34,338 bases of DNA from Eubacteriales bacterium (GTDB lineage: Bacteria > Bacillota > Clostridia > Oscillospirales > UBA644), in contig JAZNDV010000110.1 in the NCBI GenBank assembly GCA_045588285.1, positions 1-34,338 on the forward strand. The letters run 5' to 3'. Under the pieces are notes generated by a model that was not told where the DNA came from, searched no databases, and saw nothing but the letters and a program-made list of their open reading frames with translations. Shown one piece after another: positions 2,993-21,892 of the stretch (position 1 is the first letter of the stretch; each line of letters opens with the position of its first letter). The translations under genes and the position numbers were made by a program.

Positions 2993-2999
2993 GGATACT

Positions 3000-3938: not shown

Positions 3939-3956
3939 TTTGTTGATTTACGAGGT

Positions 3957-5510: not shown

Positions 5511-5541
5511 AAAATTGATAAACGAAGGAGGAATTTCATAT

Positions 5542-6438: not shown

Positions 6439-6457
6439 TTTATTGGAGGAAAACAAC

Positions 6458-7477: not shown

Positions 7478-7500
7478 TTTTTTGGTTGCTCACCACGTTG

Positions 7501-7528
7501 CCCACGATGGTATTGTTACCATTGTGGG
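7501..7528 (+). other. Intercistronic RNA hairpin in the 99-bp rmlB-rmlD spacer
   Basis: CCCACGATGGTA-TTGT-TACCATTGTGGG gives a 12-bp stem including one G-U pair. No T-run follows, so it is not a classical terminator. Confidence 0.4.
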
Positions 7529-7576
7529 TCGTCGTGTGATTTCCCTATTTTTACTTTCCCATTAAAAGGAGTTTTT

Positions 7577-8485
7577 ATGAAAGTCTTTGTAACCGGCGTT
7601 TGCGGACAGCTTGGCCACGATGTCATGCAGGAATTGCATCGCCGCGGGCGCGAATGTATCGGCAGCGACGTTATGGCGGAATATGCCGGCATTTCGTCTG
7701 AAGTAGCAACGCTTCCTTACGTCTCTTTGGATATTACCGATGCTGCAGCGGTGGAGAAGGTCTTGACCGAACTGCGTCCCGATGCCGTCATTCACTGTGC
7801 CGCATGGACTGCGGTAGATGCGGCAGAAGATGAGGAAAATCAAGCAAAAGTTTATGCCATCAACGCGGACGGAACACGGAATATCGCAAAGGTTTGCCGT
7901 GAAATTCAATCCAAAATGGTTTACATCAGCACCGATTACGTTTTTGATGGACAAGGAACGGAACCTTGGTCTCCTGATTGTAAAAACTATGCACCGCTGA
8001 GTGTGTACGGTAAAACCAAATTGGAAGGGGAGCTTGCTGTTTCTGAGCTTTTGGACCGGTACTTTATCGTCCGTATCGCTTGGGTTTTTGGGTTGAACGG
8101 CAAAAACTTCATTAAGACCATGCTGAACGTGGGTAAAAAATACGATACCGTCCGGGTGGTTAACGATCAGATCGGAACCCCGACCTATACGCTGGATCTA
8201 TCCCGTCTTTTGGTTGATATGGTAGAATCGGAAAAATACGGCTATTATCACGCTACCAACGAAGGCGGCTATATTTCTTGGTATGATTTTACCTGTGAAA
8301 TTTTCCGGCAAGCGGGCTATTCGACCAAGGTGGTTCCCGTTACTACCGAAGAATACGGCCTTTCCAAGGCAGCCCGCCCCTTTAACAGCCGTTTGGACAA
8401 ATCCAAATTGGCAGAATCCGGCTTTGCACCTTTGCCTACCTGGCAGGACGCGTTGAGCCGATATTTGAATGAATTCAAGGAGTAA
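7577..8485 (+). CDS. rfbD: dTDP-4-dehydrorhamnose reductase
   Basis: MKVFVTGVCGQLG..., the YGKTKLEGE catalytic motif and the STDYVFDG motif are present. AAAGGAG lies upstream of ATG 7577. Confidence 0.93.
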   Translation: MKVFVTGVCGQLGHDVMQELHRRGRECIGSDVMAEYAGISSEVATLPYVSLDITDAAAVEKVLTELRPDAVIHCAAWTAVDAAEDEENQAKVYAINADGTRNIAKVCREIQSKMVYISTDYVFDGQGTEPWSPDCKNYAPLSVYGKTKLEGELAVSELLDRYFIVRIAWVFGLNGKNFIKTMLNVGKKYDTVRVVNDQIGTPTYTLDLSRLLVDMVESEKYGYYHATNEGGYISWYDFTCEIFRQAGYSTKVVPVTTEEYGLSKAARPFNSRLDKSKLAESGFAPLPTWQDALSRYLNEFKE

Positions 8486-8490
8486 CTGAG

Positions 8491-9099
8491 ATGGGTCAGA
8501 TTACAGTCGAAAAGAACGTAGGCGGAATTGAAGGGCTGTGCGTCATTCAACCTGCCGTTCACGGAGATCACCGTGGGTATTTTATGGAAACCTACAGTCA
8601 AAGAGATATGGCGGAAGCCGGATTGGATATTCCCTTTGTGCAGGACAATCAGAGTATGTCTGTTAAGGGCGTTTTGCGGGGACTTCACTTCCAAAAACAA
8701 TATCCTCAGACCAAATTGGTACGGGCAATCAAAGGGAGCGTTTTTGACGTTGCCGTTGATCTTCGTTCCGGTTCTGCTACTTACGGCAAGTGGTACGGCG
8801 TTCTTTTGACCGAAGAAAACAAAAAGCAGTTCTTGATTCCCAAGGGCTTCGCTCACGGATTTTTGGTTCTGACCGATACGGCGGAATTCTGCTATAAATG
8901 CGATGATTTTTATCATGCCAACGACGAAGGCGGACTTGCCTGGAACGACCCTGCCATCGGCATCGAGTGGCCCGGTCTGGTCGGAACTTATCACGGTTCC
9001 GCTTCTTCGGAAGGCTACACCCTCTCCGACGGTACCCCCCTCAACCTCAGCGACAAAGACCAAAAGTGGCTGGGGCTGAAAGATACGTTTCGATTTTAA
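8491..9099 (+). CDS. rfbC: dTDP-4-dehydrorhamnose 3,5-epimerase
   Basis: HGDHRGYF.E, RGLHFQ, QTKLVRAIKGSVFDVAVDLR and PKGFAHGF are the RmlC cupin signature. Confidence 0.93.
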   Translation: MGQITVEKNVGGIEGLCVIQPAVHGDHRGYFMETYSQRDMAEAGLDIPFVQDNQSMSVKGVLRGLHFQKQYPQTKLVRAIKGSVFDVAVDLRSGSATYGKWYGVLLTEENKKQFLIPKGFAHGFLVLTDTAEFCYKCDDFYHANDEGGLAWNDPAIGIEWPGLVGTYHGSASSEGYTLSDGTPLNLSDKDQKWLGLKDTFRF

Positions 9100-9110
9100 G
9101 GAGCTTTGGA

Positions 9111-10193
9111 ATGAAGAAGAAAATGCTCTATATGTGCCACATAGACTGGAATTGGATCAAACAGCGTCCCCAGTTTATCGCAGAAGGACTCTCGTCTTTT
9201 TTTGATGTTTCCGTCGTTTATATGTTTCAAAACAGAAATCGGACGGTGCTTCAAAAAGGCAAAGAGCCTACGGTTCCTGTAAATCCTATTTATGCAATTC
9301 CTTTTTTTTCCAGGCTGTCCTTAACTCGATATATTGATGAGAAATTTCGTTATTTTCAGTATTTTCGGCATTATAAACGAATTAAGCCTGATTACTTATA
9401 TTTTACACACCCTTATCAGAATCCCGTAATCCCGAAAAGATTCAAGGGGAAGATCGTATACGATTGTATGGACAATTATGTAGCGATGGCTCGGGATAGT
9501 CAAAAAGAAATAATTAAGAATTATGAGCAAAAATTAGTAGACCGGGCTGATTCTATTTTAGTTTCCAGCCAGAAGCTTGAGGAAGTATTGGTGGAACGCT
9601 ACGGAGAGCATTTGAAAGAAAAAATTTCAATTGTGAGAAATGGGTATAGCGGCAATATTCTTCCTGTTGCCGTCGGAAACGAAAGCAGAGCGGAGAATAA
9701 GTTTACCATCTCCTATATTGGAACCATCGGAGCTTGGTTTAACTTTGATTATGTTTTAAGAAGTCTCCAAGAATTCCCTAATCTGGAATATCGGATTATC
9801 GGTCCCTCGGACAGTCCATCGCTGCCGCAAGCGGATAGGCTTGTTTACGTTGGAACGGTTGAGCACAGTAAACTTCATGAAGAAATTCAGGATGTGCAAT
9901 GCTTGGTCATGCCCTTTCAGATGAACGATATTGTGGAGGCAGTAGACCCCGTCAAGCTTTACGAGTACATAAATTTTAATAAGAATATTTTATGCGTGAA
10001 ATACAAAGAAATAGAGCGTTTTGATCCTTTCGTCCATTTTTACACAGACTATGAATCTTTCCGCAATCAGATCTCACGGATGATGGAAGATAATACATTG
10101 CGTTACAGCCAAGAATCCAGACGGATTTTTTTAGAAGAAAACAGTTGGGAAAGTCGTGTGTCTCAAATTAAACAAATTTTAGAAGAAGCTTAA
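9111..10193 (+). CDS. GT-B fold glycosyltransferase (GT4/TuaH-like)
   Basis: ATG 9111 follows AAGGAG. The N-terminus is MLYMCHIDWNWIKQRPQ. The C-terminal half has a GT-B nucleotide-sugar-binding pattern (YIGTIGAWFNFD, VDPVKLYEY). The ORF part from 8967 to 9110 overlaps rfbC and is not coding. Confidence 0.65.
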   Translation: MKKKMLYMCHIDWNWIKQRPQFIAEGLSSFFDVSVVYMFQNRNRTVLQKGKEPTVPVNPIYAIPFFSRLSLTRYIDEKFRYFQYFRHYKRIKPDYLYFTHPYQNPVIPKRFKGKIVYDCMDNYVAMARDSQKEIIKNYEQKLVDRADSILVSSQKLEEVLVERYGEHLKEKISIVRNGYSGNILPVAVGNESRAENKFTISYIGTIGAWFNFDYVLRSLQEFPNLEYRIIGPSDSPSLPQADRLVYVGTVEHSKLHEEIQDVQCLVMPFQMNDIVEAVDPVKLYEYINFNKNILCVKYKEIERFDPFVHFYTDYESFRNQISRMMEDNTLRYSQESRRIFLEENSWESRVSQIKQILEEA

Positions 10194-10239
10194 TGATTTC
10201 AAGCTGGAGGCTGCTTGCAAAAGCAGAAGAGAAGATCGT

Positions 10240-11337
10240 ATGAAAAAGATTATGCTTGTGTTTGGAACCAGACCGGAGGCAATCAAAATGTGTCCGTTGG
10301 TCAATGAATTAAAAAGCAGACAGAACCTGCAGACGGTAGTTTGTGTCACGGGACAGCACAGACAGATGTTGGATCAAGTGTTGGAAACGTTTCACGTAGT
10401 TCCGGATTACGATTTATCTATTATGAAAGATCGTCAGACGTTGTTTGATGTGACTACCAATATTTTGAACCGAATTAAAGATGTTTTAGAAACTGAAAAA
10501 CCTGACGTCGTTCTGGTTCATGGAGATACTTCTACCACGTTTGTGACAGCTTTGGCTTGTTTTTATTTGCAAATTCCCGTTGGGCATGTTGAGGCGGGGC
10601 TTCGTACCTACAATATCTATTCTCCTTATCCTGAGGAATTTAACCGGCAGGCTGTTGGAATTATAAGTCAATATAATTTTTCTCCCACGGAGCGATCGAA
10701 ACAAAATTTATTGAATGAAGGAAAAGACCCGTCTACCATTTACGTTACGGGTAACACTGCAATCGATGCTTTGAAAACAACGGTTCGCGAGGATTACGCA
10801 CATCCCGAATTGGATTGGGCAAAAGACAGCAGGTTAATTATGATTACTGCCCATCGCCGTGAAAATTTGGGTGAGCCGATGAAGAATATGTTTCGCGCTA
10901 TTCGAAGAGTCATGGACGAACATCCTGACGTAAAAGCAATTTATCCTATTCATATGAATCCGACGGTTCGGGAAACTGCCGATGCAATTTTGGGTGATTA
11001 TGATCGGATTCATATCATAGAACCTTTGGAGGTCTTGGATTTTCATAACTTCTTAGCGAGAAGTTATTTGATTTTAACGGATTCCGGAGGGATTCAGGAA
11101 GAAGCCCCCAGTTTGGGAAAACCTGTTCTGGTTATGCGGGATACCACGGAGCGCCCGGAGGGAATTGCTGCGGGAACACTGAAGTTGGTCGGAACGGACG
11201 AGCAGGTAATCTATGATAATTTTAAGTTGTTGTTAGATGATCCTGAAGCGTACGATAAAATGAGTAAAGCAAGCAATCCTTATGGTGACGGCTTTGCCTC
11301 TAAACGTATTGCAGATATTTTGAGTGCGGCAGAATGA
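10240..11337 (+). CDS. wecB: UDP-N-acetylglucosamine 2-epimerase (non-hydrolysing)
   Basis: FGTRPEAIKMCPLV, HVEAGLRT and DSGGIQEEAPSLGKPVLVMRDTTERPE are present. Confidence 0.92.
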   Translation: MKKIMLVFGTRPEAIKMCPLVNELKSRQNLQTVVCVTGQHRQMLDQVLETFHVVPDYDLSIMKDRQTLFDVTTNILNRIKDVLETEKPDVVLVHGDTSTTFVTALACFYLQIPVGHVEAGLRTYNIYSPYPEEFNRQAVGIISQYNFSPTERSKQNLLNEGKDPSTIYVTGNTAIDALKTTVREDYAHPELDWAKDSRLIMITAHRRENLGEPMKNMFRAIRRVMDEHPDVKAIYPIHMNPTVRETADAILGDYDRIHIIEPLEVLDFHNFLARSYLILTDSGGIQEEAPSLGKPVLVMRDTTERPEGIAAGTLKLVGTDEQVIYDNFKLLLDDPEAYDKMSKASNPYGDGFASKRIADILSAAE

Positions 11338-12617
11338 AGATGAAGTTTTTTCTAAAGTCTTTTTGGCAGAAATCCGCTGTAAAAAACGGTGTATGGATGT
11401 ATTTGCTTCAAGCCTTCAATACGATAATTCCGCTTTTCACATTACCATATATTACGCGAATCCTGGGGGATGACCGTTTCGGTGTTTTTTCGATTGCCCT
11501 GAATCTGATTGGTTATCTTCAGGTTGTAGTAGAGTATGGTTTTGGCATGTCTGCCACTCGGAAGGTTGCCCTTTGCGGATATGATGTTAAAAAGCTAAAT
11601 CGATTGTATTCTTCGGTTCTGTATTCCCGCTGTGTCCTGTTTGGACTTTCCGCGGCAGTAATCGGTGTGTATATGCTTTTTAATTTGGACGATCCCGTTC
11701 AACTCCGATGTGTTCTCTGGTTAGGAATTTGTCTGGTCGGCTATGTGCTTCAGCAAGATTGGATGTTTCAGGGATTGCAGGATATGAAATATATTTCTGT
11801 AATTAGCATCATTGGAAGAATTATTTCTGTTGTGCTTATCTTTGTTTTTGTTCGGGATCGAGATGACGTGGATCTTTACAGTTTTTTGTATGCTGTTTCT
11901 CCTTTGTTAAGCGGTGTGATAGGTTTTGTCCTTGTAAAGGTGAAGTACAAGTTGCATCTCTGTCGGATTTCTGTAAAAGAAATTCTGGAAGAGCTGAAAA
12001 GTGGTTGGTATGTGTTTACCACATCACTCAGCTCCAAGGTCTTTGGAGCCATTGGCATTACATTTTTGGGAATTTTTGATACAGAAGCCACGGTCGGTGT
12101 TTATTCTGCCATACAAAAGATTCCTCAAATGATTTTGCTTGCATGGACTCCCATCAGCCAAGTGTTGTATCCCATTACAAGCAAACGTATGAGTAGCGGT
12201 TCTTTCTCCGAGGGAAAAGCATTTGTTTTCAAACTGCGTACGAAGTTTCTTATTCCATTTATTGCTTTGGCATTGTTTGTTGGTGTGTTTGCTAAATTCT
12301 TTGTGAATCTTGCTTTTGGGAATGAGTATGCGGAGTTTTATTATTGGATTTTCCCCTTGCTTTGTTGGATGATTCTTGCGATTAATAACAATTTTCTTGG
12401 AATTCAGACATTACTTGGAAGCGGTCGGGATTTGGAATACAGCAAGTGTTTTCAGGTCGGCGTTGTTTGTACCATAGGGTTTAATTTAGTTTTGGTTTAC
12501 TTTTTCGGTGGTTTTGGTGCGGCGATTGCCCCTGTTCTTTCCGAGATGCTTTTAGGTATTTTGCTTGTTTTTCGGATTAGAAAGTGTGAAAAAGAATTTG
12601 TTGAATGCAAACAATAA
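11334..12617 (+). CDS. wzx: Wzx-type oligosaccharide flippase (MOP superfamily)
   Basis: The 427-aa protein has about 12 TM segments and an N-terminal ITRILGDDRFGVFSIALNLIGY pattern. The ATGA overlap with the wecB stop indicates translational coupling. Confidence 0.8.
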   Translation: MKMKFFLKSFWQKSAVKNGVWMYLLQAFNTIIPLFTLPYITRILGDDRFGVFSIALNLIGYLQVVVEYGFGMSATRKVALCGYDVKKLNRLYSSVLYSRCVLFGLSAAVIGVYMLFNLDDPVQLRCVLWLGICLVGYVLQQDWMFQGLQDMKYISVISIIGRIISVVLIFVFVRDRDDVDLYSFLYAVSPLLSGVIGFVLVKVKYKLHLCRISVKEILEELKSGWYVFTTSLSSKVFGAIGITFLGIFDTEATVGVYSAIQKIPQMILLAWTPISQVLYPITSKRMSSGSFSEGKAFVFKLRTKFLIPFIALALFVGVFAKFFVNLAFGNEYAEFYYWIFPLLCWMILAINNNFLGIQTLLGSGRDLEYSKCFQVGVVCTIGFNLVLVYFFGGFGAAIAPVLSEMLLGILLVFRIRKCEKEFVECKQ

Positions 12618-12659
12618 TTTCTTCTTTTGCTGACTATAATAGTTTAGGAAGTGTTTTTT

Positions 12660-14066
12660 ATGGCTATGAACAAATATAAAAACAAGGAATTATACAAAAA
12701 ACTGTTGCGCTATATCTTTTCTCTGATATTGATTGCTTCTCAGACAGCTTGTTTTGCCCGGGTTTGGCTGCAGGAATATAATCAGCATATCATGGGGCCG
12801 TTTTTTGAACGCGGAAACTGGTTGTTCTTTGCCGTATATGCGATTTTGTTCGTTGTTTTCCTGATTTGCTTTGACGGGCTGAAGTACGGTCTTTACCGTC
12901 AGTTTAATCTGCTTTTGGGACAATGGCTGGCGACGTTGGGGACGACCTTTATCGTCTATTTGCAGATTTGTCTTCTGTCTCTCCGCTTCGTAAATCCGAT
13001 CCCTCTTCTGTGGGCGATGGTAATCAATCTTGTGCTATGTGTGATTTTGACTTTATTGAGCGAATGGTTGATTCATACGCTGTTTCCGGCAAAAAAACTG
13101 CTGGTGATTTGCGACAGTTATCCCCCGGACGATTTTTTGAAGAAAATGTCCGGCCGGCGGGACAAGTATCGGGTTGCTGAAATCGTCAACGTATCGGAAG
13201 GTTTGGATACCATTGAAACGATGATTCGAGAGGCGGAAAACGTTCTTGTTTACGATGTTCACTCTGAAACCCGTAACAAAATCTTAAAGTGGTGTTTTGA
13301 GTATAACGTGCGCGCCTATTCTACCACAAAGGTGTCGGATATTTTAATCCGCGGCGCGGAACGGATTCATATTTTTGATACGCCGCTGCTTCTATACCGC
13401 AATATCGGACTGACCATTGAACAGCGGTTTTTTAAGCGTCTTATGGATATCGTGGTATCACTGCTGATGCTGATCGTTTTTTCTCCCATTCTTTTACTCA
13501 GTGCCATTGCGATTAAATTGTGTGACGGCGGGCCTGTATTTTATCTGCAGGAACGTTGTACGCTGAACGGAAAAGTTTTCAAAATTCATAAGTTCCGCAG
13601 TATGGTAGTAGATGCGGAAAAGTATAGCGGTGCTCAGTTGGCAACCGAAAAAGATCCGCGGATCACCCCCGTGGGACGTGTTTTACGTGCCACTCGTCTT
13701 GATGAACTTCCTCAGTTGATCGACATTCTCGTGGGGAATATGAGCCTTGTCGGACCCCGTCCGGAACGAAAGGAAATTACCGAGCAGTATGCAAAGGAAA
13801 TGCCGGAGTTTAAGTATCGGCTTAAGGTTCGCGGAGGACTTACGGGATACGCTCAGCTTTACGGAAAATATAATACGACTGCATATGATAAACTGCAGTT
13901 GGATTTGATGTATATTCAAAACTATTCTTTGCTTCTTGATATTCGTCTGATCCTTATGACGGTTAAAATTATGTTTATGAAAGAAAGCACGGAAGGAGTT
14001 TCGGAAGAGACCAATCAAAAAATTGCAGAAATGATTGAAGCATCCGACGATCAAAAAAATCAATAA
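12660..14066 (+). CDS. Polyprenyl-phosphate hexose-1-phosphate transferase (large WbaP/CpsE-type priming enzyme)
   Basis: The C-terminal bacterial sugar-transferase domain has KRLMDIVVSL, KFRSM, PRITPVGRVLRATRLDELPQL and NMSLVGPRPE. It is preceded by N-terminal TM helices and a central Rossmann-like segment. ATG 12660 lies 9 nt after AGGAAG. Confidence 0.88.
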   Translation: MAMNKYKNKELYKKLLRYIFSLILIASQTACFARVWLQEYNQHIMGPFFERGNWLFFAVYAILFVVFLICFDGLKYGLYRQFNLLLGQWLATLGTTFIVYLQICLLSLRFVNPIPLLWAMVINLVLCVILTLLSEWLIHTLFPAKKLLVICDSYPPDDFLKKMSGRRDKYRVAEIVNVSEGLDTIETMIREAENVLVYDVHSETRNKILKWCFEYNVRAYSTTKVSDILIRGAERIHIFDTPLLLYRNIGLTIEQRFFKRLMDIVVSLLMLIVFSPILLLSAIAIKLCDGGPVFYLQERCTLNGKVFKIHKFRSMVVDAEKYSGAQLATEKDPRITPVGRVLRATRLDELPQLIDILVGNMSLVGPRPERKEITEQYAKEMPEFKYRLKVRGGLTGYAQLYGKYNTTAYDKLQLDLMYIQNYSLLLDIRLILMTVKIMFMKESTEGVSEETNQKIAEMIEASDDQKNQ

Positions 14067-14178: not shown

Positions 14179-14847
14179 ATGACGAAAAAATCTACGGGCT
14201 TGGTTCTTGCCGTTTCCTTGGTCTGTTGTGTCGCCATGGCATTGGTGGACGGGGTTTGGCAGCCGGGATACGCCTTGAAATCCGCAGTGAAGATTGCTCT
14301 GTTTCTGCTGTTGCCTTTTGTCTGTTCTCTCGTGGATCGGGAAGTGGAATACCGATCCCTGTTCCGATCCAATAAAAAAGGGCTGTCGGTAGCCTTTGCG
14401 TTGGGGATCGGCTTGTTCGGAGTGATTTTAGGCGGTTATTTTCTCCTTTCTTCCTATTTTGATTTCTCTAACATTGCCTCGTCCTTGACCGCGTCCACCG
14501 GCGTGGACGGTGACAATTTTATCTTCGTCGCCTTGTATATTTCTTTTATCAATTCTCTGCTCGAAGAATTTTTCTTCCGAGGATTTGTTTTTACTAATTT
14601 GAAACGAACTGCAAATCGGACGGTCGCGTATCTGTTTAGTTCTTTGCTGTTCTCTTTGTATCATACGGCAATGATGATCGGCTGGTTTTCTCTGCCCCTG
14701 TTTTTGTTGGTCCTCGTAGGGCTTGCGGTGGGCGGTGCCATTTTCAACTTTCTTAACGAGAAATATAATACGGTCTTCGTTTCGTGGATCGTTCATATGT
14801 TTACCAATTTTGCCATCAACACCATCGGGTTTCTGTTGCTGAAATAA
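14179..14847 (+). CDS. CPBP (CAAX/Abi) family intramembrane glutamic endopeptidase
   Basis: EEFFFRG, FSLYH and HMFTNF motifs sit within a 7-8 TM protein. GGAGGAGGAG lies upstream of ATG 14179. Confidence 0.85.
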   Translation: MTKKSTGLVLAVSLVCCVAMALVDGVWQPGYALKSAVKIALFLLLPFVCSLVDREVEYRSLFRSNKKGLSVAFALGIGLFGVILGGYFLLSSYFDFSNIASSLTASTGVDGDNFIFVALYISFINSLLEEFFFRGFVFTNLKRTANRTVAYLFSSLLFSLYHTAMMIGWFSLPLFLLVLVGLAVGGAIFNFLNEKYNTVFVSWIVHMFTNFAINTIGFLLLK

Positions 14848-14866
14848 AACGCTTTTTTATATAGTA

Positions 14867-14905
14867 GATATTCTGCAGAATATTTTTTGTTCTGCAGAAT
14901 TTTTC
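14867..14905 (+). terminator. Tandem rho-independent terminators ending the glycan operon
   Basis: ATATTCTGCAGAATAT followed by TTTTT, then GTTCTGCAGAAT followed by TTTT. Both are palindromes centred on CTGCAG. Confidence 0.6.
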
Positions 14906-14974
14906 TGTTTATATTCATGTTTTTGCGCAAAAAATCCTGTCAAAAAATGTTCAAAACTTTTTTTATGAAAGGGA

Positions 14975-15003
14975 TTGAAATTTGTTTTTTTTCATGCTAT
15001 ACT
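14975..15003 (+). promoter_or_regulatory. Sigma-A-type promoter of the ABC exporter operon (TTGAAA-N17-TATACT with TGn extension)
   Basis: TTGAAA is at 14975-14980 and TGc-TATACT at 14995-15003, with a 17-nt spacer. This predicts a ~135-nt leader before ATG 15145. Confidence 0.6.
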
Positions 15004-15144
15004 ACAAGCAATTAAAGGTTTCCAGTTTCCCGGCAGGAGGTTCGGGGACTGCGGTGAGACTGATAAGCCAACACCGGATTCAAAACGCGCCCCTATCGTC
15101 TATCTTCAAAATAATGCAAAAGAAATGAAAAGGAGAAATCCGAA

Positions 15145-17517
15145 ATGGGAACGAATACGAATCGAAATGTTGCGGCTGATCCGCAAAAACCTCCGGGTAT
15201 CAACCCGGAACGGGGGTTCAATACCTCTTTCCGGGGACTTCCGCTTCTGACGAATAAGCAACTGTCGTCTGACGAATTGCTCCTGTTGGAACAGGCGGTT
15301 CCGAACGATGAAAAAGTACAGTTTGTAATCGTTGGCGATCTGAATTTGAAAAACAAATACGCCACTTCCTTTTTGGCGGTCACCGATCGACAGATCTACG
15401 GGTTTGATCCTTCTTTGGAGAAGGGATATAAAACCCACGGATACCAAGGAATCTGCCGTGCTTACGTGAAGCGGTATTACGGCAACGCGACGTTGGTGTT
15501 TTCTTCCGATGACAGCGGCAGAGAATATATCGATCTATCCAAGCAATATGAAAATTTTATCCGATTTTCTTACAAAGTTGCTTCCCTTTACGATTCGGCT
15601 GCCCGTTATATCGAGAACGTTGCCGCCGGTAAAGATCCGGGGGAGGAACTGAAGTTTGTGGAAGCCGCCTTTGAAAAGCAATTCAGCATTTGTCCCAAGT
15701 GTGGACGTGCGCTGATCCGCCCCGGTGCCCCTTGTCTGAATTGTCAATCCAAAGGGCAGGTGGTTAAAAAATTGGCGGGGTATATTTTGCCTCAAAAATG
15801 GCTGCTTCTGTTTTGTCTGTTGTTGTCCGTGATCACCACTGCCGTGTCCCTCGTTCCTCCTTATATGACGAAAACGCTTGTGGACGACGTACTTCCCCAC
15901 GGAAAGAAGAATATGCTTCTGGTGTGCGTCGGAGTTCTGTTTGGAACGTATTTGATTCAGTATGGAATCGGTGCGGTTCGTTCCTATCTTCTCCGGGTCA
16001 GCGGGGACAAAATTGTGGCGGAGTTGCGCAACGACGTCTACCGTAAAGCACAGCTTTTGCCCATGCGCTTTTATGACCGCACCTCTACCGGTTCGGTCAT
16101 CAACCGGATCAGCGGCGATACGTCCACGATACAGGCGTTTATGCTCCGTATTACGCAAGAGGTCGTGGTTCAGTTTTTCCTTTTGATCGGAATTATCGTC
16201 ATTATGTTCGTGCTGAATTGGGAACTGACCTTGTTGTCCTTGATTCCCGTTCCTTTCGTGGTCGTGGGGGCTCGCATCTTCGGTAAAAAGATTGCGCCTT
16301 TTTATCGCCGCATTTGGCGGCGTTGGTCGGCAGTCTCGTCAATTCTGACCGATACGATTCCCGGAATCCGGGTGATTAAGGCATTTACCAACGAAAAAAA
16401 GAGCGTAGACACCTTCTGCGATTATAACGGAGAATGGCTGAAAACCGATATTTCCGCGTCGAAGATCACGACGTTATTTCCCAACGTCGTCAGTTTCGTT
16501 ATTTCCTGCGGTTCGCTTTTGATTTGGAGCGTCGGCGGAAATTGGACCATCGACGATCCGGGGATTTTGTCTCCGGGGTTGTTGGTCTCCTTTATTTCCT
16601 ATACGTCTATGTTCTACGGTCCGGTCAATTTCTTTGCAAACCTCAACGATTCCTATCAGAACGCCCTGAATTCCGCAGAACGGTTGTTGGATATTTTGGA
16701 CGCGGAACCGGAAGCCGATTTCGCGAAGGGGAATCACCCCAAGCATTTGAAGGGAAAAATCGAATTTAAGAACGTCAGTTTTTCCTTCGACCGTTCCAAG
16801 CGTACCCTCTCCAACGTGAATCTTACCATTGAACCGGGGGATATTGTGGGCATCGTCGGGACGACCGGTGCGGGGAAATCCACGTTGATCAATCTTCTTA
16901 TGCGGTATTACGACCACTACGACGGTGAGATCTTGATGGACGGAATCAACATCAAAGAGATCGACTTGGAATTCTACCGTTCCGAAATCGGCTACGTTCA
17001 GCAGGAGCCCATGATCTTTCACGACTCCATCTACAACAATATCGCATACGGTTGTGATAACGTTCACGTGGAACAGGTGATCCACGCCGCAGACGTTGCC
17101 AACGCCCATGAATTCATTGCCCGGCTTCCGGATGGATACGATACTCTTTTGGGAGAACGGGGAACCGGATTGTCCGGCGGCGAACGGCAACGGTTGTCCA
17201 TTGCCCGGGCAGTGTTGCGAAATCCCAATATTCTGTTTTTGGACGAAGCCACCGCTTCCGTTGACTCGGAAACCGAAAGCCTCATTCAAGATGCGATCGA
17301 CAATCTGATTCGGGGGAGAACCACCCTGATGATCGCCCACCGTTTATCTACTCTGCGGAAGGCAAACAAAATTATCGTCGTGGATAAAGGGGAGATCCTG
17401 GAAATGGGTTCTCCGGAAGAATTGATGGAAAAGAAAGGCAAATACTATAAGTTGGTTCAGATTCAGACCATGTCCGACCAAATTCGTAAAACCAAGGAAG
17501 AAGAGAGGTTTGAGTAA
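15145..17517 (+). CDS. Type-I ABC exporter half-transporter (TMD-NBD) with a ~215-aa N-terminal cytoplasmic extension containing a zinc ribbon
   Basis: AAGGAG lies 9 nt upstream of ATG 15145. Six TM helices of the ABC_membrane type start near residue 217. The NBD has Walker A GTTGAGKST, signature LSGGERQRLSIARA, Walker B ILFLDEATASVD and H-loop IAHRLST. The N-terminal CPKCGRALIRPGAPCLNC is encoded at 15691-15744. Confidence 0.9.
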   Translation: MGTNTNRNVAADPQKPPGINPERGFNTSFRGLPLLTNKQLSSDELLLLEQAVPNDEKVQFVIVGDLNLKNKYATSFLAVTDRQIYGFDPSLEKGYKTHGYQGICRAYVKRYYGNATLVFSSDDSGREYIDLSKQYENFIRFSYKVASLYDSAARYIENVAAGKDPGEELKFVEAAFEKQFSICPKCGRALIRPGAPCLNCQSKGQVVKKLAGYILPQKWLLLFCLLLSVITTAVSLVPPYMTKTLVDDVLPHGKKNMLLVCVGVLFGTYLIQYGIGAVRSYLLRVSGDKIVAELRNDVYRKAQLLPMRFYDRTSTGSVINRISGDTSTIQAFMLRITQEVVVQFFLLIGIIVIMFVLNWELTLLSLIPVPFVVVGARIFGKKIAPFYRRIWRRWSAVSSILTDTIPGIRVIKAFTNEKKSVDTFCDYNGEWLKTDISASKITTLFPNVVSFVISCGSLLIWSVGGNWTIDDPGILSPGLLVSFISYTSMFYGPVNFFANLNDSYQNALNSAERLLDILDAEPEADFAKGNHPKHLKGKIEFKNVSFSFDRSKRTLSNVNLTIEPGDIVGIVGTTGAGKSTLINLLMRYYDHYDGEILMDGINIKEIDLEFYRSEIGYVQQEPMIFHDSIYNNIAYGCDNVHVEQVIHAADVANAHEFIARLPDGYDTLLGERGTGLSGGERQRLSIARAVLRNPNILFLDEATASVDSETESLIQDAIDNLIRGRTTLMIAHRLSTLRKANKIIVVDKGEILEMGSPEELMEKKGKYYKLVQIQTMSDQIRKTKEEERFE

Positions 17518-18005
17518 TGGAACGGATTTATATCGACCGCGATTTTGCCCGGTTCACCCGAAAGGATATTACGGTTGTGGATATGGAATTGTATGACGGG
17601 CGGAAATTTGAAAATCTGGAACCCCGCCGGCTGTTCCCTATGACGGGTCTTGAAAAGTACATAACCCTTTTAGACCAGGAAGGACATGAGGTTGCGGTGA
17701 TCCGAGATCTGCGCACCTTGCCGGAAGGAGAACGAAAGATCATCGAGAGTTGTTTGGAGGAATATTATTTGATTCCCCGCATCACCCGGATCAATGAGTG
17801 CAAGGAATCTTTCGGAATGCTTACTCTCAACGTGGAGACCGACCGGGGGAACGCTGTCATCGAAATCAGAAACATTTTTCACGGGTTAAAGCTTCTGTAC
17901 GGAAGCAGAGTTTTGGTTTGTGACATCAACGATAACCGCTATGAGATTCCGGACTTAAACAAGCTCGACCGAAAAAGCAGAGCTTTACTTGATTTATTCT
18001 TATAA
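17517..18005 (+). CDS. DUF1854-like protein (162 aa)
   Basis: The TAATG stop/start overlap with the exporter gene indicates coupling. I recognise the sequence style (LEPRRLFP, YITLLD..G.E...IRDL..LP, YLIP.I.RI, VETDRG, RYEIPDL..LD..SR.LLDLF) as DUF1854 (PF08909) from memory. This needs HMM confirmation. Confidence 0.7.
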   Translation: MERIYIDRDFARFTRKDITVVDMELYDGRKFENLEPRRLFPMTGLEKYITLLDQEGHEVAVIRDLRTLPEGERKIIESCLEEYYLIPRITRINECKESFGMLTLNVETDRGNAVIEIRNIFHGLKLLYGSRVLVCDINDNRYEIPDLNKLDRKSRALLDLFL

Positions 18006-18021
18006 TACGGAGGAATAAAAT

Positions 18022-18348
18022 ATGAAATTGATTCTTGCCATCGTGAATAACGATGATAGTGCCGTTGCATCTTCCGCATTGACCGATGCCGGATTTTTTG
18101 TCACCCGTCTTTCTACGACCGGCGGCTTTCTGATGGTTGGGAATACGACCCTCCTCATCGGAACGGAAGACGACGACACTGCAGCAGCCCTTGATATTCT
18201 GAAAGAGCATTGTACGACCCGGAAGCATATCAATGCCCATACGGCGTCCTTTGGCGCCGGAATGAAAAACCATAGTTTACCCGAAGAGGTGACCGTCGGC
18301 GGCGCTACGGTGTTCGTTCTGAACGTGGATCAGATGGAAAAGTTCTAA
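18022..18348 (+). CDS. darA: PII-like cyclic-di-AMP receptor (DarA/PstA, YaaQ family)
   Basis: The 108-aa protein reads MKLILAIVNNDDS...FFVTRLSTTGGFLMVGNTTLLIGTEDD...VGGATVFVLNVDQMEKF. It is collinear with B. subtilis YaaQ/DarA as I remember it (TKLATTGGFL..GNTT..IG, GGATVFVL). GGAGGA lies 8 nt upstream and only 16 nt separate it from the DUF1854 stop. Confidence 0.85.
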   Translation: MKLILAIVNNDDSAVASSALTDAGFFVTRLSTTGGFLMVGNTTLLIGTEDDDTAAALDILKEHCTTRKHINAHTASFGAGMKNHSLPEEVTVGGATVFVLNVDQMEKF

Positions 18349-18375
18349 TCTTTTGCAAACAATAGATACGATCCC

Positions 18376-18404
18376 TTGACGATTCAAGGGGATTGAGTTA
18401 TAAT
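18376..18404 (+). promoter_or_regulatory. Sigma-A-type promoter (TTGACG-N17-TATAAT) for the reductase-like/importer operon
   Basis: TTGACG is at 18376-18381 and TATAAT at 18399-18404, with a 17-nt spacer. The -35 lies inside the inverted repeat CCCTTGA-CGAT-TCAAGGG (18373-18390). Confidence 0.55.
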
Positions 18405-18439
18405 AAGAATAAGAAGTAATGAAAAAGGGAGAAATCATT

Positions 18440-19207
18440 ATGGCGTTAACAACGGAACAAATTAACTCCGTAAAGGGGAGAGGGTTTTTACGCAACCGTG
18501 GAACAGAGTGTTTTTCCGGGCGTATGCTTGCCCCCGGAACGGTGTTTACTGCGGAAAATATCCGGGATATGGCGACCCTTGCGGAAGCCTACGGCAACGG
18601 AAAATTGATTCCCACCAGCCGTCAATGTATTGAGATCCCCGGCATCGCTTTTGACGATATCCCAAAGGCGGAAGTCTTTGCCATGGAGCACGGTCTGGTT
18701 TTCGGCGGAACCGGTCCGAAGGTTCGCCCGATCACCGCCTGCAAGGGAACGACCTGTGTTTTCGGTTGTTATGATACCCAAGCCCTTGCCAAGGAGATTC
18801 ACGAGACCTTTTATGTCGGCTGGAATTCTGTAAAACTGCCTCACAAATTCAAGATCGGCGTGGGCGGTTGTCCCAACAGCTGTATCAAGCCTTCTCTGAA
18901 TGATTTCGGAGTGGAAGGCCGCCGGATTCCCGGTCAGAAAGATGCCGTCTATCAGATCTACGTAGGCGGTACTTGGGGAAAAACTACCCGTATGGGAACG
19001 GCACTTTCCCGTCTCGTGACGGCGGAGGAAGTGTTGCCGATCTTAGAAAAAACCATTCTATGGTTCCGGGAAAACGCCTACGTCAAAGAGCGCCTCGGAA
19101 AAGCCGTAGACCGTATCGGCGTGGAATCTTTGGAAAAGGCTCTGTTTTCCGACGATCTATTGAATCGAAAGGAAGAGATCCTTTCCGCGGAATTGAAAGT
19201 ACGGTAA
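18440..19207 (+). CDS. Small nitrite/sulfite-reductase-like 4Fe-4S (siroheme-type) domain protein (~255 aa)
   Basis: The Cys clusters ACKGTTCVFGC and GVGGCPNSC, with the spacing and surrounding residues, resemble NIR_SIR ferredoxin-like plus 4Fe-4S domains of low-molecular-weight sulfite reductases. AGGGAG lies 8 nt before ATG 18440. The in-frame ATG at 18419 would sit almost at the predicted transcript start. Confidence 0.6.
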   Translation: MALTTEQINSVKGRGFLRNRGTECFSGRMLAPGTVFTAENIRDMATLAEAYGNGKLIPTSRQCIEIPGIAFDDIPKAEVFAMEHGLVFGGTGPKVRPITACKGTTCVFGCYDTQALAKEIHETFYVGWNSVKLPHKFKIGVGGCPNSCIKPSLNDFGVEGRRIPGQKDAVYQIYVGGTWGKTTRMGTALSRLVTAEEVLPILEKTILWFRENAYVKERLGKAVDRIGVESLEKALFSDDLLNRKEEILSAELKVR

Positions 19208-19208
19208 A

Positions 19209-20141
19209 ATGAAGCGATTGATATCTTTGATTGTTCTCTTGATGTTGTGTATTGCACTTTCCGCTTGCGGGAAGCCGAGGGTGCCGGATTCTTCCGATGG
19301 TTTCCTTCTCACCGATGCCATGGGGAATCCTGTCCGCCTTTCTCCCAATGCCCGGGTGGTGTCCTGTTACGGTTCTTTTGCCGATTGCTGGATTCTCTCC
19401 GGCGGGGAATTGGTCGGGGTGACCGACGATGCAGTGGAGCAGGGAATTCTTTCGGCAGGCTCCGTTTCTCTTGTAGGGACGGTGAAGAATATTGACTTGG
19501 AGCGGATTATTGCACTAAGTCCCGATTATGTTATTCTTTCTGCCGATCTTGCGGCACATTTGAAATTGCAGGAGTCTTTGGACAAGGCAAAGATTCCCCA
19601 CGGCTATTTTCGGGTGGATACCTTTTCTGATTATAAGAAATTGATGGAGCAGTTCTGTGCCGTCAATGGACGGCAGGATCTATACAAAATTCATGTGTCC
19701 GACGTGGAAGAAAAGATCTCTTCCGTGTTGGAAAAGATTCCCAAGAATACCGAAAAATCCGTTCTTCTCCTTCGGGTCTATTCCACCGGAATGAAGGCAA
19801 AGACCGACGACAACTTGGCAGGACAGATTCTGAAAGAATTCGGACTTTCCAATATTGCGCACGAAAATGCGTCTTTGCTGGAAGATTTGAGTGTGGAAAA
19901 GATTCTTTTGGAAGACCCTGATTATATCGTTGCCCTTGCGATGGGGGAACAGGCGGCTGCCGATGAATTTTTACGGCAAAACGTAGAAAATAATCCGGCG
20001 TGGGCGGGGCTTACTGCGGTGAAAAACGGAACTTATTTTATGCTTCCGAAGGAGTTATTTCATTATAAACCCAACGAACGGTGGGCTGAAAGTTATGAAA
20101 CCCTTGCAAAAAGGATCTATCCCGAACATTTCGAATCGTAA
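19209..20141 (+). CDS. ABC importer substrate-binding lipoprotein, BtuF/FhuD (cluster A-II, PF01497-like) class
   Basis: The lipoprotein signal peptide has the lipobox LSAC (MKRLISLIVLLMLCIALSACG). LSPDYVILSADL and NPAWAGLTAVKNGTYFMLPKELF are typical of the iron-chelate/corrinoid-binding family. Confidence 0.85.
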   Translation: MKRLISLIVLLMLCIALSACGKPRVPDSSDGFLLTDAMGNPVRLSPNARVVSCYGSFADCWILSGGELVGVTDDAVEQGILSAGSVSLVGTVKNIDLERIIALSPDYVILSADLAAHLKLQESLDKAKIPHGYFRVDTFSDYKKLMEQFCAVNGRQDLYKIHVSDVEEKISSVLEKIPKNTEKSVLLLRVYSTGMKAKTDDNLAGQILKEFGLSNIAHENASLLEDLSVEKILLEDPDYIVALAMGEQAAADEFLRQNVENNPAWAGLTAVKNGTYFMLPKELFHYKPNERWAESYETLAKRIYPEHFES

Positions 20142-21135
20142 AAAGCACGGAATTACCCCTTCCGTGCTCCTGTTTATTCTGATGTTTTCCCTTCTGGTTT
20201 CTTTTATTGCCGCTCTTTGCTTCGGTTCGGTTCCGATTTCCCCGGGGGAGATTTTCTCTGCTTTGTATTCCGGAGATTTTGAGGCTCCTGCGTTGCGGAT
20301 CTTGGTATATCTTCGTCTGCCTCGGGCATGCGGTGCTCTTTTTTCGGGTATGGCGTTGGCTGCAGCCGGGGTTCTGATTCAGGCTGTGCTCCATAATCCC
20401 ATGGCGGCACCCAATGTAATCGGGGTTAATTCCGGTGCTGGATTGGGGGCGGTGTTGATGCTTGCCGTGTTTCCGTCGGCGGTTCGCTTTTTGCCTTTGG
20501 CGGCGTTTTTTGGGGCGGTGGCGGCGTGTCTTTGCATCTACGCCATCTCTTTGAAGACCGGAGCAGACCGAATGACCGTTACTTTGGTAGGAATTGCCGT
20601 CAGTTCCACTCTCAATGCGGGGATCAATACGGTTAAAATTCTTTATCCCGACAGTGTATACGATACCGACGCTTTTATGATCGGCGGACTTTCCGGGGTC
20701 ACCTTTTCTCGAATTGCATTTCCGGGTCTTCTGATTCTTTCCGGATTGTTGGTAAGCGTTCTTTTGGCTCGGGACGTAGATATTCTTGTCCTCGGAGACG
20801 ATACCGCAAAAAGTTTAGGAATGAACGTCAAGGGAATGCAGATTCTGTTGTTGTGTCTTGCCAGTATTCTTGCCGGTTCGTCCGTTAGTTTTTCCGGACT
20901 CCTGGGATTTGTGGGGCTGATCGTTCCCCATATTGCCCGCCGTTTGGTGGGACAGAACCACCGATGGCTCATTCCTGTAAGTGCTTTGGGCGGGGCAGTT
21001 TTGGTGCTGATCTGCGACCTTTTCAGCCGGATTCTCTTTGCTCCCTACGAATTGCCCGTGGGAATTTTACTTTCCTTCATAGGCGCTCCCTTCTTCGTAA
21101 TTTTGATTTTGATGGGGGAGAAGCGGTATGATTGA
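20095..21135 (+). CDS. FecCD/BtuC-family ABC importer permease
   Basis: YLRLPRACGALFSGMALAAAGVLIQ, about 10 TM segments and the C-terminal GILLSFIGAPFFVILIL are present. The start at 20095 overlaps the SBP gene by 47 nt, so the start is uncertain. Confidence 0.88.
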   Translation: MKPLQKGSIPNISNRKKHGITPSVLLFILMFSLLVSFIAALCFGSVPISPGEIFSALYSGDFEAPALRILVYLRLPRACGALFSGMALAAAGVLIQAVLHNPMAAPNVIGVNSGAGLGAVLMLAVFPSAVRFLPLAAFFGAVAACLCIYAISLKTGADRMTVTLVGIAVSSTLNAGINTVKILYPDSVYDTDAFMIGGLSGVTFSRIAFPGLLILSGLLVSVLLARDVDILVLGDDTAKSLGMNVKGMQILLLCLASILAGSSVSFSGLLGFVGLIVPHIARRLVGQNHRWLIPVSALGGAVLVLICDLFSRILFAPYELPVGILLSFIGAPFFVILILMGEKRYD

Positions 21136-21892
21136 ATTAAAATCCATTTCCTTCTCCTACGGTGAAAAACCGGTCCTTTCCAATCTTTCCGCGGCTTTCG
21201 GTCCCGGAACCTTTTACGGCATCGTCGGACCGAACGGATGCGGAAAAACGACGCTGATCCGTTTGCTTTGCGGATTAAATAAACCCTCAGAGGGACAGGT
21301 CCTGTTAAACGGCCGGTCTTACGGCGATTACTCCAGAAAAGAGCTTGGGAAGCAGTTGTCCTTGTTGCCTCAATCCCGGTCGTTGCCTTCCGTTACGGTG
21401 GAAGACTTGGTCTCTCGGGGGCGGTATCCCTATTTGGGACTGACCCGCCGTATGACCGACGCAGATCGAACCGCCGTACAAAAGGCGTTGTCTGACGCAG
21501 GTGCTGTCTCATTCGCACGTCGGGATATCACTACCCTTTCCGGCGGAGAGCGTCAGCGGGTCTGCTTTGCTCTGCTTTTGGCACAAGATACCCCCTACGT
21601 TCTTTTGGACGAGCCTACTACCTATCTTGATATTGCCCATCGCTTCTCTTTGTTGGAACAATTGAAATCTTTGAAAGAACAGGGAAAGTGCGTCATTGCG
21701 GTATTGCACGACCTCTCCCTGGCGTTGCGGTATTGCGATCAGGTTGCGGTGTTGGAAAAGGGATCGCTCTGTGCCATGGATTCTCCGCAGACATTGTTGG
21801 ACCGCGGTATTTTGGAACGGGTTTTCTCCGTTCGATGTGCGGCCGTCGAAAAGGACGGAGAAAAAGACGTGATCTTTTCCCCCAAAGAATAA
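21128..21892 (+). CDS. FecE/BtuD-type ABC importer ATPase
   Basis: Walker A is GPNGCGKTTL, the signature LSGGERQRV and Walker B VLLDEPTTYLD. GGGGGAG lies upstream, and the gene overlaps the permease stop by 8 nt. Confidence 0.9.
   Translation: MIELKSISFSYGEKPVLSNLSAAFGPGTFYGIVGPNGCGKTTLIRLLCGLNKPSEGQVLLNGRSYGDYSRKELGKQLSLLPQSRSLPSVTVEDLVSRGRYPYLGLTRRMTDADRTAVQKALSDAGAVSFARRDITTLSGGERQRVCFALLLAQDTPYVLLDEPTTYLDIAHRFSLLEQLKSLKEQGKCVIAVLHDLSLALRYCDQVAVLEKGSLCAMDSPQTLLDRGILERVFSVRCAAVEKDGEKDVIFSPKE

Follow-up and report, generated by a model that had tools for sequence, protein, structure and literature searches.

The window, that is, the whole stretch of 34,338 nucleotides that was analysed, contains three tightly packed genes on the forward strand. 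They encode an ABC exporter, a DUF1854 protein and a DarA protein, and their features are as follows.

15145-17517, forward strand: ABC exporter half-transporter, 790 aa, with PF00664 and PF00005 domains
15223-15624, forward strand: PH-like domain of the exporter (aa 27-160), with seven strands and a C-terminal helix in the AlphaFold model
15691-15744, forward strand: predicted zinc-ribbon motif CPKC-x10-CLNC of the exporter (aa 183-200), right before the first transmembrane helix
17517-18005, forward strand: DUF1854 protein, 162 aa (PF08909, 1.4e-40)
18009-18014, forward strand: Shine-Dalgarno sequence GGAGGA of darA, 7 nt 5' of the ATG, as read from the sequence
18022-18348, forward strand: darA/pstA, PII-like c-di-AMP receptor, 108 aa, the last gene (PF06153, 1.2e-31)

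The TAA stop codon of the exporter (17515-17517) shares base 17517 with the ATG of the DUF1854 gene (17517-17519), which forms a TAATG overlap, and a spacer of 16 nt containing the GGAGGA separates the DUF1854 gene from darA. The open reading frames and junctions matched exactly the packing described in an earlier sequence-only reading of this DNA. Its statement that no terminator precedes position 18348 also held, as only weak hairpins at chance level were found within the three genes. The exporter/DUF1854 stop-start overlap was present in 41 of 80 loci, and nearly all others had a gap of 0-20 nt. Judged by its sequence, the DUF1854 gene is translationally coupled to the exporter gene. The following features lie on either side of the three genes.

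14870-14900, forward strand: intrinsic terminator of the upstream CPBP-protease gene, a 13-bp stem followed by a T-run
14975-15003, forward strand: promoter-like site, TTGAAA and TATACT with a 17-nt spacer and a TG before the -10 (extended -10)
15004-15110, forward strand: structured 5' leader RNA that forms two hairpins; the AGGAGG loop is invariant, as are the single-stranded stretches GAUUC and ACGCGCCCC
18369-18395, forward strand: hairpin 3' of darA with a weak T-tail, found by RNA folding (z = -2.15 for the 86-nt segment)

The upstream terminator folded at -21 kcal/mol (z = -6.28), with 0 of 200 shuffled sequences as stable, and it delimits the unit on the 5' side. The promoter-like site matches the consensus at 10 of 12 positions, its -35, -10 and TG are kept in the close relatives L001-L005 and L049, and it probably acts as a promoter. 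The hairpin 3' of darA is kept in L001-L004 and overlaps the -35 of the promoter-like site of the next gene (18376-18404). Within 150 nt past darA, a hairpin with a T-rich tail was found in 41 of 69 loci, many of them strong and located 8-25 nt after the stop codon. The exporter, DUF1854 and darA genes probably share one transcript.

Conservation of the leader at 15004-15110 far exceeds that of the intergenic DNA around it. A covariance model of the leader, R1, recovered four loci outside its building set (three distinct sequences) with E-values of 1e-21 to 1e-30. The alignment supports 19 base pairs, with 97.9% of cells paired and compensatory changes in 5 pairs; none of 500 shuffles matched the covariation score, and slid controls paired at 33-50%. 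Searches with nhmmer and the covariance model found the leader only in the closest clade, in which DUF1854 identity is about 76% or more, and not 5' of module copies that are more distant. When the whole window was searched with Rfam 15 at gathering thresholds, only one tRNA was detected and neither ydaO nor any other riboswitch; a permissive scan of 14840-15200 gave chance-level matches only. A known riboswitch, especially the c-di-AMP-responsive ydaO, was therefore rejected as the identity of the leader, as no Rfam family matched. As judged from its covariation, the leader is an unannotated RNA preceding the operon in the closest relatives.

In the exporter, PF00664 and PF00005 matched at 8.9e-49 and 2.2e-33, respectively. 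After the N-terminal cytoplasmic domain, the transmembrane domain has six helices (aa 221-494), and the nucleotide-binding domain spans aa 555-704. The translation has intact Walker A (GTTGAGKST), Walker B (ILFLDEA), signature (LSGGERQR) and H-loop (IAHR) motifs. With both domains and all ATPase motifs present, the protein is a Type I ABC exporter half-transporter of the MsbA-like fold. The extra cytoplasmic module noted in the sequence-only reading is present as an N-terminal extension, in which modelling places a PH-like domain and a zinc ribbon. The AlphaFold model of this N-domain has a mean pLDDT of 79.6, and above 84 over aa 31-170 except aa 61-70 (78), with a shallow alignment under the model since the homology search yielded only 18 proteins, mostly fragments. 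Foldseek matched the N-domain to the PH-like domain of DENND3 (E 7.8e-4, probability 1.0) and to the bacterial PH domains 3dcx and 3hsa (probability up to 0.98), and the Pfam family bPH_3 gave a weak match (E 0.048). The four Cys residues of the zinc-ribbon motif are kept in homologues covering the region, with weak DZR and Zn_ribbon Pfam matches. The possibility that the N-domain is a copy of DUF1854 was ruled out by hhalign (probability 0.1%). Through its PH-like and zinc-ribbon module, the exporter might dock a partner or sense a signal.

The DUF1854 protein matched PF08909 over the full model with 138.6 bits (cut-off 26.8). Its structural model (pLDDT 86) consists of two beta-rich halves, each with a helix cap. 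Neither a sequence relative nor a significant structure match was found for it in the PDB, and a likeness to the MalK/PotA regulatory domain and to HIN/OB folds was not significant (best Foldseek E 0.09, top TM-scores about 0.2). No DUF1854-DarA or exporter-DarA fusions were seen, and the longer DUF1854 matches lacked a DarA domain. In beta-proteobacteria, cofitness and an occasional fusion link DUF1854 to its ABC partner, and DUF1854 was proposed there as a transporter subunit (bioRxiv 10.1101/072470). Most likely, the DUF1854 protein assists the exporter as an accessory subunit, and the two would form a complex.

DarA scored 109.5 bits against PF06153 (cut-off 27). PF00664, PF00005, PF08909 and PF06153 were all far over threshold in the HMM check proposed earlier. 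It reached 114.9 bits for the NCBIfam equivalog NF058593, under the cut-off of 140, and is therefore a DarA family member outside the curated equivalog set. Its similarity to L. monocytogenes PstA (4rww, E 6.8e-25) and B. subtilis DarA (4rle, E 1.4e-21) extends to S. aureus PstA (4d3g), with E-values of 1e-19 to 7e-25 over the three. PF06153, the length, the T-loop GGFL and the c-di-AMP contacts are shared with these proteins. All contact residues defined by Choi et al. 2015 are present in the DarA of the window (T28, GGFL34-37, N41, G47, G94, T97 and F99). The contacts, including the VGGATxF motif, are at least 90% conserved over 69 copies of the module. The C-terminal phosphate-contacting residue differs, being a near-invariant Lys (motif E-K) in the module, His108 in L. 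monocytogenes and Gln in B. subtilis. On the basis of these residues, the DarA of the module is predicted to bind c-di-AMP, and it would be a trimer. In Bacilli, darA is placed with tmk and holB (tmk-darA-holB), whereas here it forms the 3' end of an exporter operon. The tmk-holB linkage in Bacilli, although long conserved, did not readily expose a direct partner of DarA. The sequence-only reading called the target of DarA poorly defined. As a c-di-AMP receptor, DarA/PstA is conserved widely. A review of 2023 likewise stated that the partner of DarA/PstA "has escaped identification" after extensive efforts (PMC10636490), and targets are still largely unknown, but a preprint of July 2026 has now named GlnR as a partner of PstA in S. 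aureus.

We then examined how far the linkage of darA to the exporter/DUF1854 pair is conserved. The census was performed with tblastn, as ORF calling of the neighbours was confounded by long antisense ORFs. Of 79 species-representative genomes that could be tested, 69 had a darA gene directly 3' of the DUF1854 gene and in the same orientation. When genome and metagenome loci were dereplicated at 95%, the same was found in 87 of 104 DUF1854 lineages, with the metagenome scan mostly re-sampling the same broad clade. The linkage extends over Lachnospirales and Eubacteriales/Oscillospiraceae, down to a DUF1854 identity of about 47%, and darA is always the last gene of the module and on the same strand, with a median DUF1854-darA gap of about 27 nt. 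The surroundings behave otherwise: the CPBP and NirSir neighbours of the window are kept in just 4-5 of 80 loci, and each other neighbour family is common to no more than about 7 of 80. Seven further contexts all had different flanks. The linkage of darA is thus far above chance (69/79 versus 4-5/80 for the other flanks). Among DarA homologues at 70-76% identity, six of seven are in the same trio. A linkage unique to this genome, which the sequence-only reading had named as evidence against its proposal, is clearly not what was found, and darA is enriched in the neighbourhood census that it had suggested. No report of an exporter-DUF1854-darA linkage was found in the literature searched.

The linkage is not complete. 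In about 17 of the 104 lineages, falling in roughly four clades, the exporter/DUF1854 pair has no adjacent darA; therefore the exporter functions even where no DarA is encoded beside it, and a global signalling role is probable for DarA. Pfam annotation of the flanks of two such loci, L099 and L122, revealed nothing telling. One DarA orthologue with 73% identity is encoded as a stand-alone gene, so DarA is probably the general cellular DarA and not a dedicated exporter subunit. In addition, few gain or loss events lie behind the linkage, and it therefore represents fewer independent evolutionary observations than loci.

PII-family proteins encoded beside transporters gate them, as in GlnK-AmtB and SbtB-SbtA. 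Likewise, the present operon would combine a small trimeric PII-fold sensor with a membrane transporter, here as judged from the genes, and the two genes are adjacent, co-oriented and conserved across taxa as in a PII-gated operon (87 of 104 lineages, two orders of Clostridia). This operon logic is the basis of the mechanism that we propose for DarA. The systems differ in that AmtB is a channel and SbtA a secondary importer, whereas an ABC exporter plus a DUF1854 component is encoded here. SbtB, too, binds c-di-AMP (PMC8654305). OpuC is also a c-di-AMP-responsive ABC transporter, acting through the CBS domains of OpuCA according to a table in PMC10636490; it is an importer on whose own ATPase subunit c-di-AMP acts directly, whereas an exporter with a separate PII-like sensor is proposed here. 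In the proposed mechanism, the exporter would be a homodimer whose N-terminus bears the cytoplasmic PH-like domain and zinc ribbon, and the DUF1854 protein, a small cytoplasmic protein, would be supplied to it via translational coupling. DarA, as a trimeric PII-like protein, would read the c-di-AMP level and with it potassium, osmotic and amino-acid status. DarA would have two states, and in one of them it would bind cytoplasmic parts of the exporter/DUF1854 complex and alter transport. By analogy with DarB and the genetics of apo-DarA, the binding state would probably be the ligand-free one, and export of the substrate would then track the second messenger. The gene context and the analogy to GlnK-AmtB and SbtB-SbtA suggest that DarA gates the exporter directly; the interaction itself, whether it would raise or lower transport, and what kind of substrate is exported are likewise matters of inference, and any link to osmolyte or amino-acid homeostasis is speculative. 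We consider it quite possible, at a little under an even chance, that the three genes form a conserved transcription unit and functional module in which DarA tunes the exporter by c-di-AMP. The narrower reading, in which DarA is a dedicated c-di-AMP gate of the PH-domain ABC exporter/DUF1854 complex in gut Clostridia, is doubtful.

The stand-alone orthologue, the roughly four clades whose pairs lack a neighbouring darA, the tmk-holB operon of Bacilli and the GlnR preprint all fit a general DarA that is only co-expressed with the exporter. Such a DarA would act elsewhere, on enzymes or on regulators of the GlnR type, for instance, without contacting the exporter, and the two would have a promoter in common, perhaps as both are needed under the same conditions. 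This alternative is rather unlikely, as the convenience of co-expression alone rarely outlasts such rearrangement as is seen here, with adjacency in 87 of 104 lineages amid shuffled neighbours, tight gaps, and darA always last on the same strand. A functionally meaningless adjacency inherited by chance would require only a single ancestral arrangement followed by three or four losses, since the DarA-less loci fall in few clades. To this we assign the least probability of all, because both flanks turn over completely in the same genomes while the linkage spans two orders, to about 47% DUF1854 identity, and the intergenic gaps stay short.

Other alternatives concern the substrate. The best NCBIfam matches of the exporter and the DUF1854 protein were NF052233 (582.6 bits, cut-off 880) and NF052234 (89.8 bits, cut-off 150), so the "cyanophycin-metabolism-associated" naming given in the sequence-only reading was right, with both matches below cut-off. 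The pair is within the cyanophycin-associated ABC/DUF1854 superfamily, under both equivalog cut-offs. It has the same core as the pair of Price et al., an ABC exporter followed by DUF1854, for which DUF1854 and its ABC partner were cofit with cphA and cphA' in two beta-proteobacteria (bioRxiv 10.1101/072470). NF052233 exporters have the same architecture including the N-terminal domain, and the PH-like domain is common to the CphA-associated relatives because the alignment begins at aa 44. As has been suggested for the beta-proteobacterial relatives, the exporter might carry a cyanophycin-like polymer or peptide, that is, an Asp/Arg polymer or dipeptide from CphA-like enzymes encoded elsewhere, with DarA providing nitrogen or amino-acid coupling. 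However, the host here is a member of Clostridia and not a beta-proteobacterium, darA is added as a third gene, and no cphA, cphA' or cphB was found nearby. The 34-kb window contains no cphA, cphB or cphA-like gene, as noted before, although a copy might lie elsewhere in the genome. Neither cphA nor cphB was found near the module in about 160 loci, and none was seen among the recurring neighbours of the 80 genome loci or in two Pfam-annotated flanks. The cyanophycin tie is weak for this clade because both scores fall well under the equivalog cut-offs and cphA/cphB are missing nearby, and we regard such a substrate as improbable. Neither cdaA nor tmk was present in the window or among the recurring neighbour families of the 80 genome loci. 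The presence of a c-di-AMP receptor gene with an exporter gene also raises the idea that c-di-AMP or a related nucleotide is itself expelled, with DarA as the sensor or hand-over protein and export on at high c-di-AMP. In other Firmicutes, c-di-AMP is known to leave the cell via multidrug-type pumps (PMC5874923). We give this idea still less credit, since the known c-di-AMP exporters are MFS pumps and the exporter family is also proteobacterial, whereas DarA/PstA is reportedly absent in Gram-negative bacteria.

A trio that stays intact over two orders of Clostridia in scrambled surroundings is the type of signal that revealed GlnK-AmtB. The linkage offers DarA a concrete candidate partner, in a system of three defined proteins. 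If the narrower reading of DarA as a dedicated gate is true, DarA/PstA would for the first time have a transporter as target, and an ABC exporter under c-di-AMP control through a PII-like protein would likewise be a first. For the window's own clade, the undescribed leader RNA would then mean a second layer of regulation. For DUF1854 and the PH-domain exporter, whose function has until now been deduced solely from beta-proteobacterial fitness data, the linkage is a second point of entry. Since the module is carried by abundant Lachnospiraceae and Oscillospiraceae of the gut and rumen, export controlled by a second messenger could matter for host-microbe chemistry.

The exporter, the DUF1854 gene and darA follow one another closely on the forward strand of the window. 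The sequence-only reading had described them as one operon, and we found that its ORF positions and packing match exactly. The HMM domain check that it had proposed was performed with Pfam, which backs all three proteins with scores far over threshold. The features of the region are as follows.

14870-14900: strong terminator hairpin (z = -6.3) at the end of the CPBP-protease gene
14975-15003: promoter-like site with an extended -10, upstream of the exporter
15004-15110 (+): two-hairpin 5' leader RNA, beginning at the putative transcription start, right next to the predicted -10 box
15145-17517 (+): ABC exporter, 790 aa (Pfam ABC_membrane 8.9e-49, ABC_tran 2.2e-33)
17517-18005 (+): DUF1854 gene, 162 aa (Pfam DUF1854 1.4e-40)
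18022-18348 (+): darA, 108 aa (Pfam CdAMP_rec 1.2e-31)
18369-18395: hairpin after darA (CCCTTGA-CGAT-TCAAGGG), kept in the related loci L001-L004

The exporter stop codon (TAA, 17515-17517) and the DUF1854 start codon (ATG, 17517-17519) have one A in common. The gap between DUF1854 and darA is 16 bases and includes GGAGGA at 18009-18014. The next, unrelated gene has an 11/12 promoter-like site whose TTGACG -35 box sits inside the hairpin after darA, so that terminator and promoter overlap within 18369-18404. Long antisense ORFs were observed within the three genes at 15535-16158, 16474-17340 and 17926-18273, all on the reverse strand, and similar ones in related loci led a simple longest-ORF gene caller astray. 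These were regarded as probable shadow ORFs, since the forward-strand genes, which are confirmed, account for the whole region.

One genome per species (GTDB set) was scanned with a DUF1854 alignment, and the best 80 of 535 relatives were kept. By tblastn, the exporter was directly upstream of DUF1854 in all 80 of these loci. In the gene-neighbourhood census proposed with the sequence-only reading, 69 of the 79 loci with enough contig had a co-oriented darA directly behind DUF1854. A metagenome scan seeded with more distant DUF1854 sequences gave 80 more loci. After the pooled loci were dereplicated at 95% identity, darA was immediately downstream in 87 of 104 testable lineages. The linkage thus withstands the refuting condition set with the sequence-only reading, that it be unique to this genome.

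Linkage of darA by DUF1854 identity to the window (linked/testable lineages)
at least 70%: 16/16
60-69%: 14/18
50-59%: 48/54
40-49%: 9/14
30-39%: 0/2

In a DUF1854 tree, the DarA-less loci formed about four clades, a pattern that fits a putative single ancestral trio followed by a few losses. The trio was carried by Lachnospirales (Acetatifactor, Roseburia, Lachnospiraceae) and Eubacteriales (Mageeibacillus, Ruminococcus, Oscillospiraceae). When DarA was the starting point, exporter-DUF1854-darA trios were found around six of seven homologues (70-76% identity), and the flanks of the seven contexts were all different. The seventh, 73% identical to the DarA of the window, is a stand-alone gene (L081, 6001-6330) with an AraC-type regulator and a VanY/choline-binding protein on either side and DUF1846 and MatE downstream. 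At least two DarA-less Faecousia-type loci (L031 and L060) also had DUF1846 as the gene immediately before the exporter, which hints that a local rearrangement parted darA from the exporter.

The exporter stop and DUF1854 start overlapped in 41 of the 80 loci, with a gap of 0-20 nt in nearly all others, and the median gap between DUF1854 and darA was about 27 nt. A hairpin with a T-rich tail was found within 150 nt after darA in 41 of 69 loci. With this hairpin behind it, darA would typically close a three-gene operon. These results demonstrate that the conserved three-gene module is real.

The leader RNA was found upstream of the exporter in the window, L001-L005, L049, L172 and L174-L176, and among the closest relatives it was far better conserved than the intergenic sequence around it. 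With a covariance model derived from seven sequences, four further loci outside the build set (three distinct sequences) were recovered at E values of 1e-21 to 1e-30. In the 11-sequence alignment, 97.9% of cells were paired over 19 pairs, compared with 33-50% in slid-register controls. Compensatory changes were found in five pairs and the covariation score was reached by 0 of 500 shuffles, statistics that are only suggestive since the leader sequences are closely related. The AGGAGG loop did not vary, and the stretches GAUUC and ACGCGCCCC were invariant or nearly so. A comparison with Rfam gave no family match, ydaO included. The leader, which is confined to the window's clade, the closest clade of the module, looks like a candidate new cis-regulatory RNA. 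More distant Lachnospiraceae-type operon copies without the leader had an operator-like palindrome, ACAAATGATTTGT, instead. It was found upstream of the exporter, about 10 nt past an extended -10 box, in L006, L009 and L012 (also L015 and L028). Its place near the predicted transcription start suggests that these copies may be under a different, protein-based control.

The CPBP-protease and NirSir-like neighbours of the window were found again in only 4-5 of 80 loci. When all flanking ORFs were clustered, no other family exceeded about 7 of 80 loci, a count that the crude ORF calling may make too low, and the recurring families were housekeeping genes without relation to the module. A candidate pair identified by eye, a VTC/CYTH-like polyphosphate-polymerase-domain gene and DUF4956, preceded the exporter in 6-7 of 80 loci (L056, L071 and five others), about 3-4 kb upstream of DUF1854; it is rare, yet among the commonest neighbour families. 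Downstream of the module in the window (18419-21892, +) are a stand-alone nitrite/sulfite-reductase-type 4Fe-4S/siroheme-domain protein of 262 aa, a Peripla_BP_2 binding-protein gene and two ORFs that by look resemble an iron/B12-type ABC importer permease and ATPase. Of the 80 genomes, only the closest five have this cluster next to the module. Upstream is a long co-directional surface-polysaccharide cluster (1859-14066, +), which was not kept beside the module in other loci. It encodes glycosyltransferases, an O-antigen-polymerase-like protein, a UDP-GlcNAc 2-epimerase, a priming sugar transferase, a multi-pass membrane ORF (11334-12617) and three rhamnose-pathway-type enzymes (nucleotidyltransferase, 4,6-dehydratase and RmlD-type reductase). 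A Na+/H+-exchanger (CPA-type) gene in which no RCK domain was detected (26282-27610, -) and a tRNA gene (27787-27860, -) had no obvious c-di-AMP signalling link within the window.

The relation of DarA to potassium, osmotic and amino-acid homeostasis is reportedly the subject of a 2024 J. Bacteriol. paper from the Stülke laboratory. We found that the DarA of the window matched solved structures of this family, namely PstA from L. monocytogenes (4rww, E 6.8e-25) and DarA from B. subtilis (4rle, E 1.4e-21). The c-di-AMP contacts listed by Choi et al. (T28, the GGFL T-loop, N41, G47 and VGGATxF) are all present in it and at least 90% conserved in 69 module copies, so that it is expected to bind c-di-AMP. 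The position of the phosphate contact His108 of L. monocytogenes is a near-invariant Lys in module DarAs, whereas B. subtilis DarA has Gln. Module DarAs have a C-terminal E-K motif, such as MEKF (last darA codons, 18340-18348 in the window; also in the related loci), whereas those of Listeria and Bacillus end in FHHx/FHQF. A 2023 review (PMC10636490) stated that the interaction partner of DarA/PstA had escaped identification, and a July 2026 preprint reported GlnR as a binding partner of PstA in S. aureus, termed the first target.

The exporter has intact ATPase motifs and about 205 residues ahead of the first transmembrane helix. In the model of this N-terminus, pLDDT exceeds 84 across residues 31-170 apart from a single block at 78. 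A PH-like domain of seven strands and a C-terminal helix comes first; a further helix and a CPKC...CLNC zinc ribbon come after it. Foldseek matches were consistently PH-like or PTB domains. The top match was the DENND3 PH-like domain (E 7.8e-4); among bacterial PH domains, 3dcx and 3hsa had probabilities up to 0.98. The domain is common to CphA-associated relatives, because the alignment of NF052233, the NCBIfam model for the cyanophycin metabolism-associated ABC protein, begins at residue 44. A relationship of this domain to DUF1854 was ruled out; the two are unrelated. The DUF1854 model (pLDDT 86) has two beta-rich halves, each with a helix cap, and no significant relative was found in the PDB by structure or sequence comparison. 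The DUF1854 family is large (1557 clusters of 50% identity at E ≤1e-3), so the DarA-linked clade makes up only a small, lineage-specific fraction.

A previous report showed that DUF1854 was cofit with the adjacent ABC transporter, cphA and cphA' in two beta-proteobacteria and proposed a role for it as a subunit in an amino-acid polymer exporter (Price et al., bioRxiv 10.1101/072470). This preprint was the only mention of DUF1854 in the literature searched. The naming given in the sequence-only reading agrees with NCBIfam, which now labels the ABC/DUF1854 pair "cyanophycin metabolism-associated", and these models were the best matches for the window pair. Both proteins fell below the equivalog cut-offs (582.6 versus 880 for the ABC protein and 89.8 versus 150 for DUF1854), and neither cphA nor cphB was found close to any of the loci examined. 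The pair in the window is thus a sister subfamily outside the cyanophycin-associated equivalog. Cyanophycin-type export is an improbable, unsupported reading of the substrate, and nucleotide export, likewise unsupported, is more improbable still.

We propose that the trio would be a single transcription unit for one functional module, in which DUF1854 would assist the PH-domain exporter as a cytoplasmic accessory subunit and DarA would tie exporter activity to the c-di-AMP level. DarA may bind the cytoplasmic parts of the exporter when it is in one of its nucleotide states, which is probably the apo form. The three proteins probably act in one pathway; a direct regulatory interaction between DarA and the exporter is plausible and is put forward tentatively. 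The main alternative, which we consider rather unlikely, would make DarA a global signalling protein that only happens to share the promoter of the exporter. It would account for the orthologous DarA that stands alone, for the roughly four exporter/DUF1854 clades without adjacent darA, and for the tmk-type linkage found in Bacilli instead; darA was described as "invariably" operonic with tmk in six Firmicutes (Choi et al.). The conserved module of the sequence-only reading stands and its interpretation is supported in part; the second-messenger gating that it proposed is a hypothesis with good motivation rather than a result.

The literature searched contained no account of the exporter-DUF1854-darA linkage; its coverage is incomplete, so that a prior mention elsewhere is possible; as far as this literature shows, the module is undescribed. 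PII-type sensors encoded with transporters and c-di-AMP control of transport are already known kinds, so the module is a variant, not categorically new, and would not astonish a specialist. It opens the long-standing question of the DarA target to a direct test with three defined proteins.
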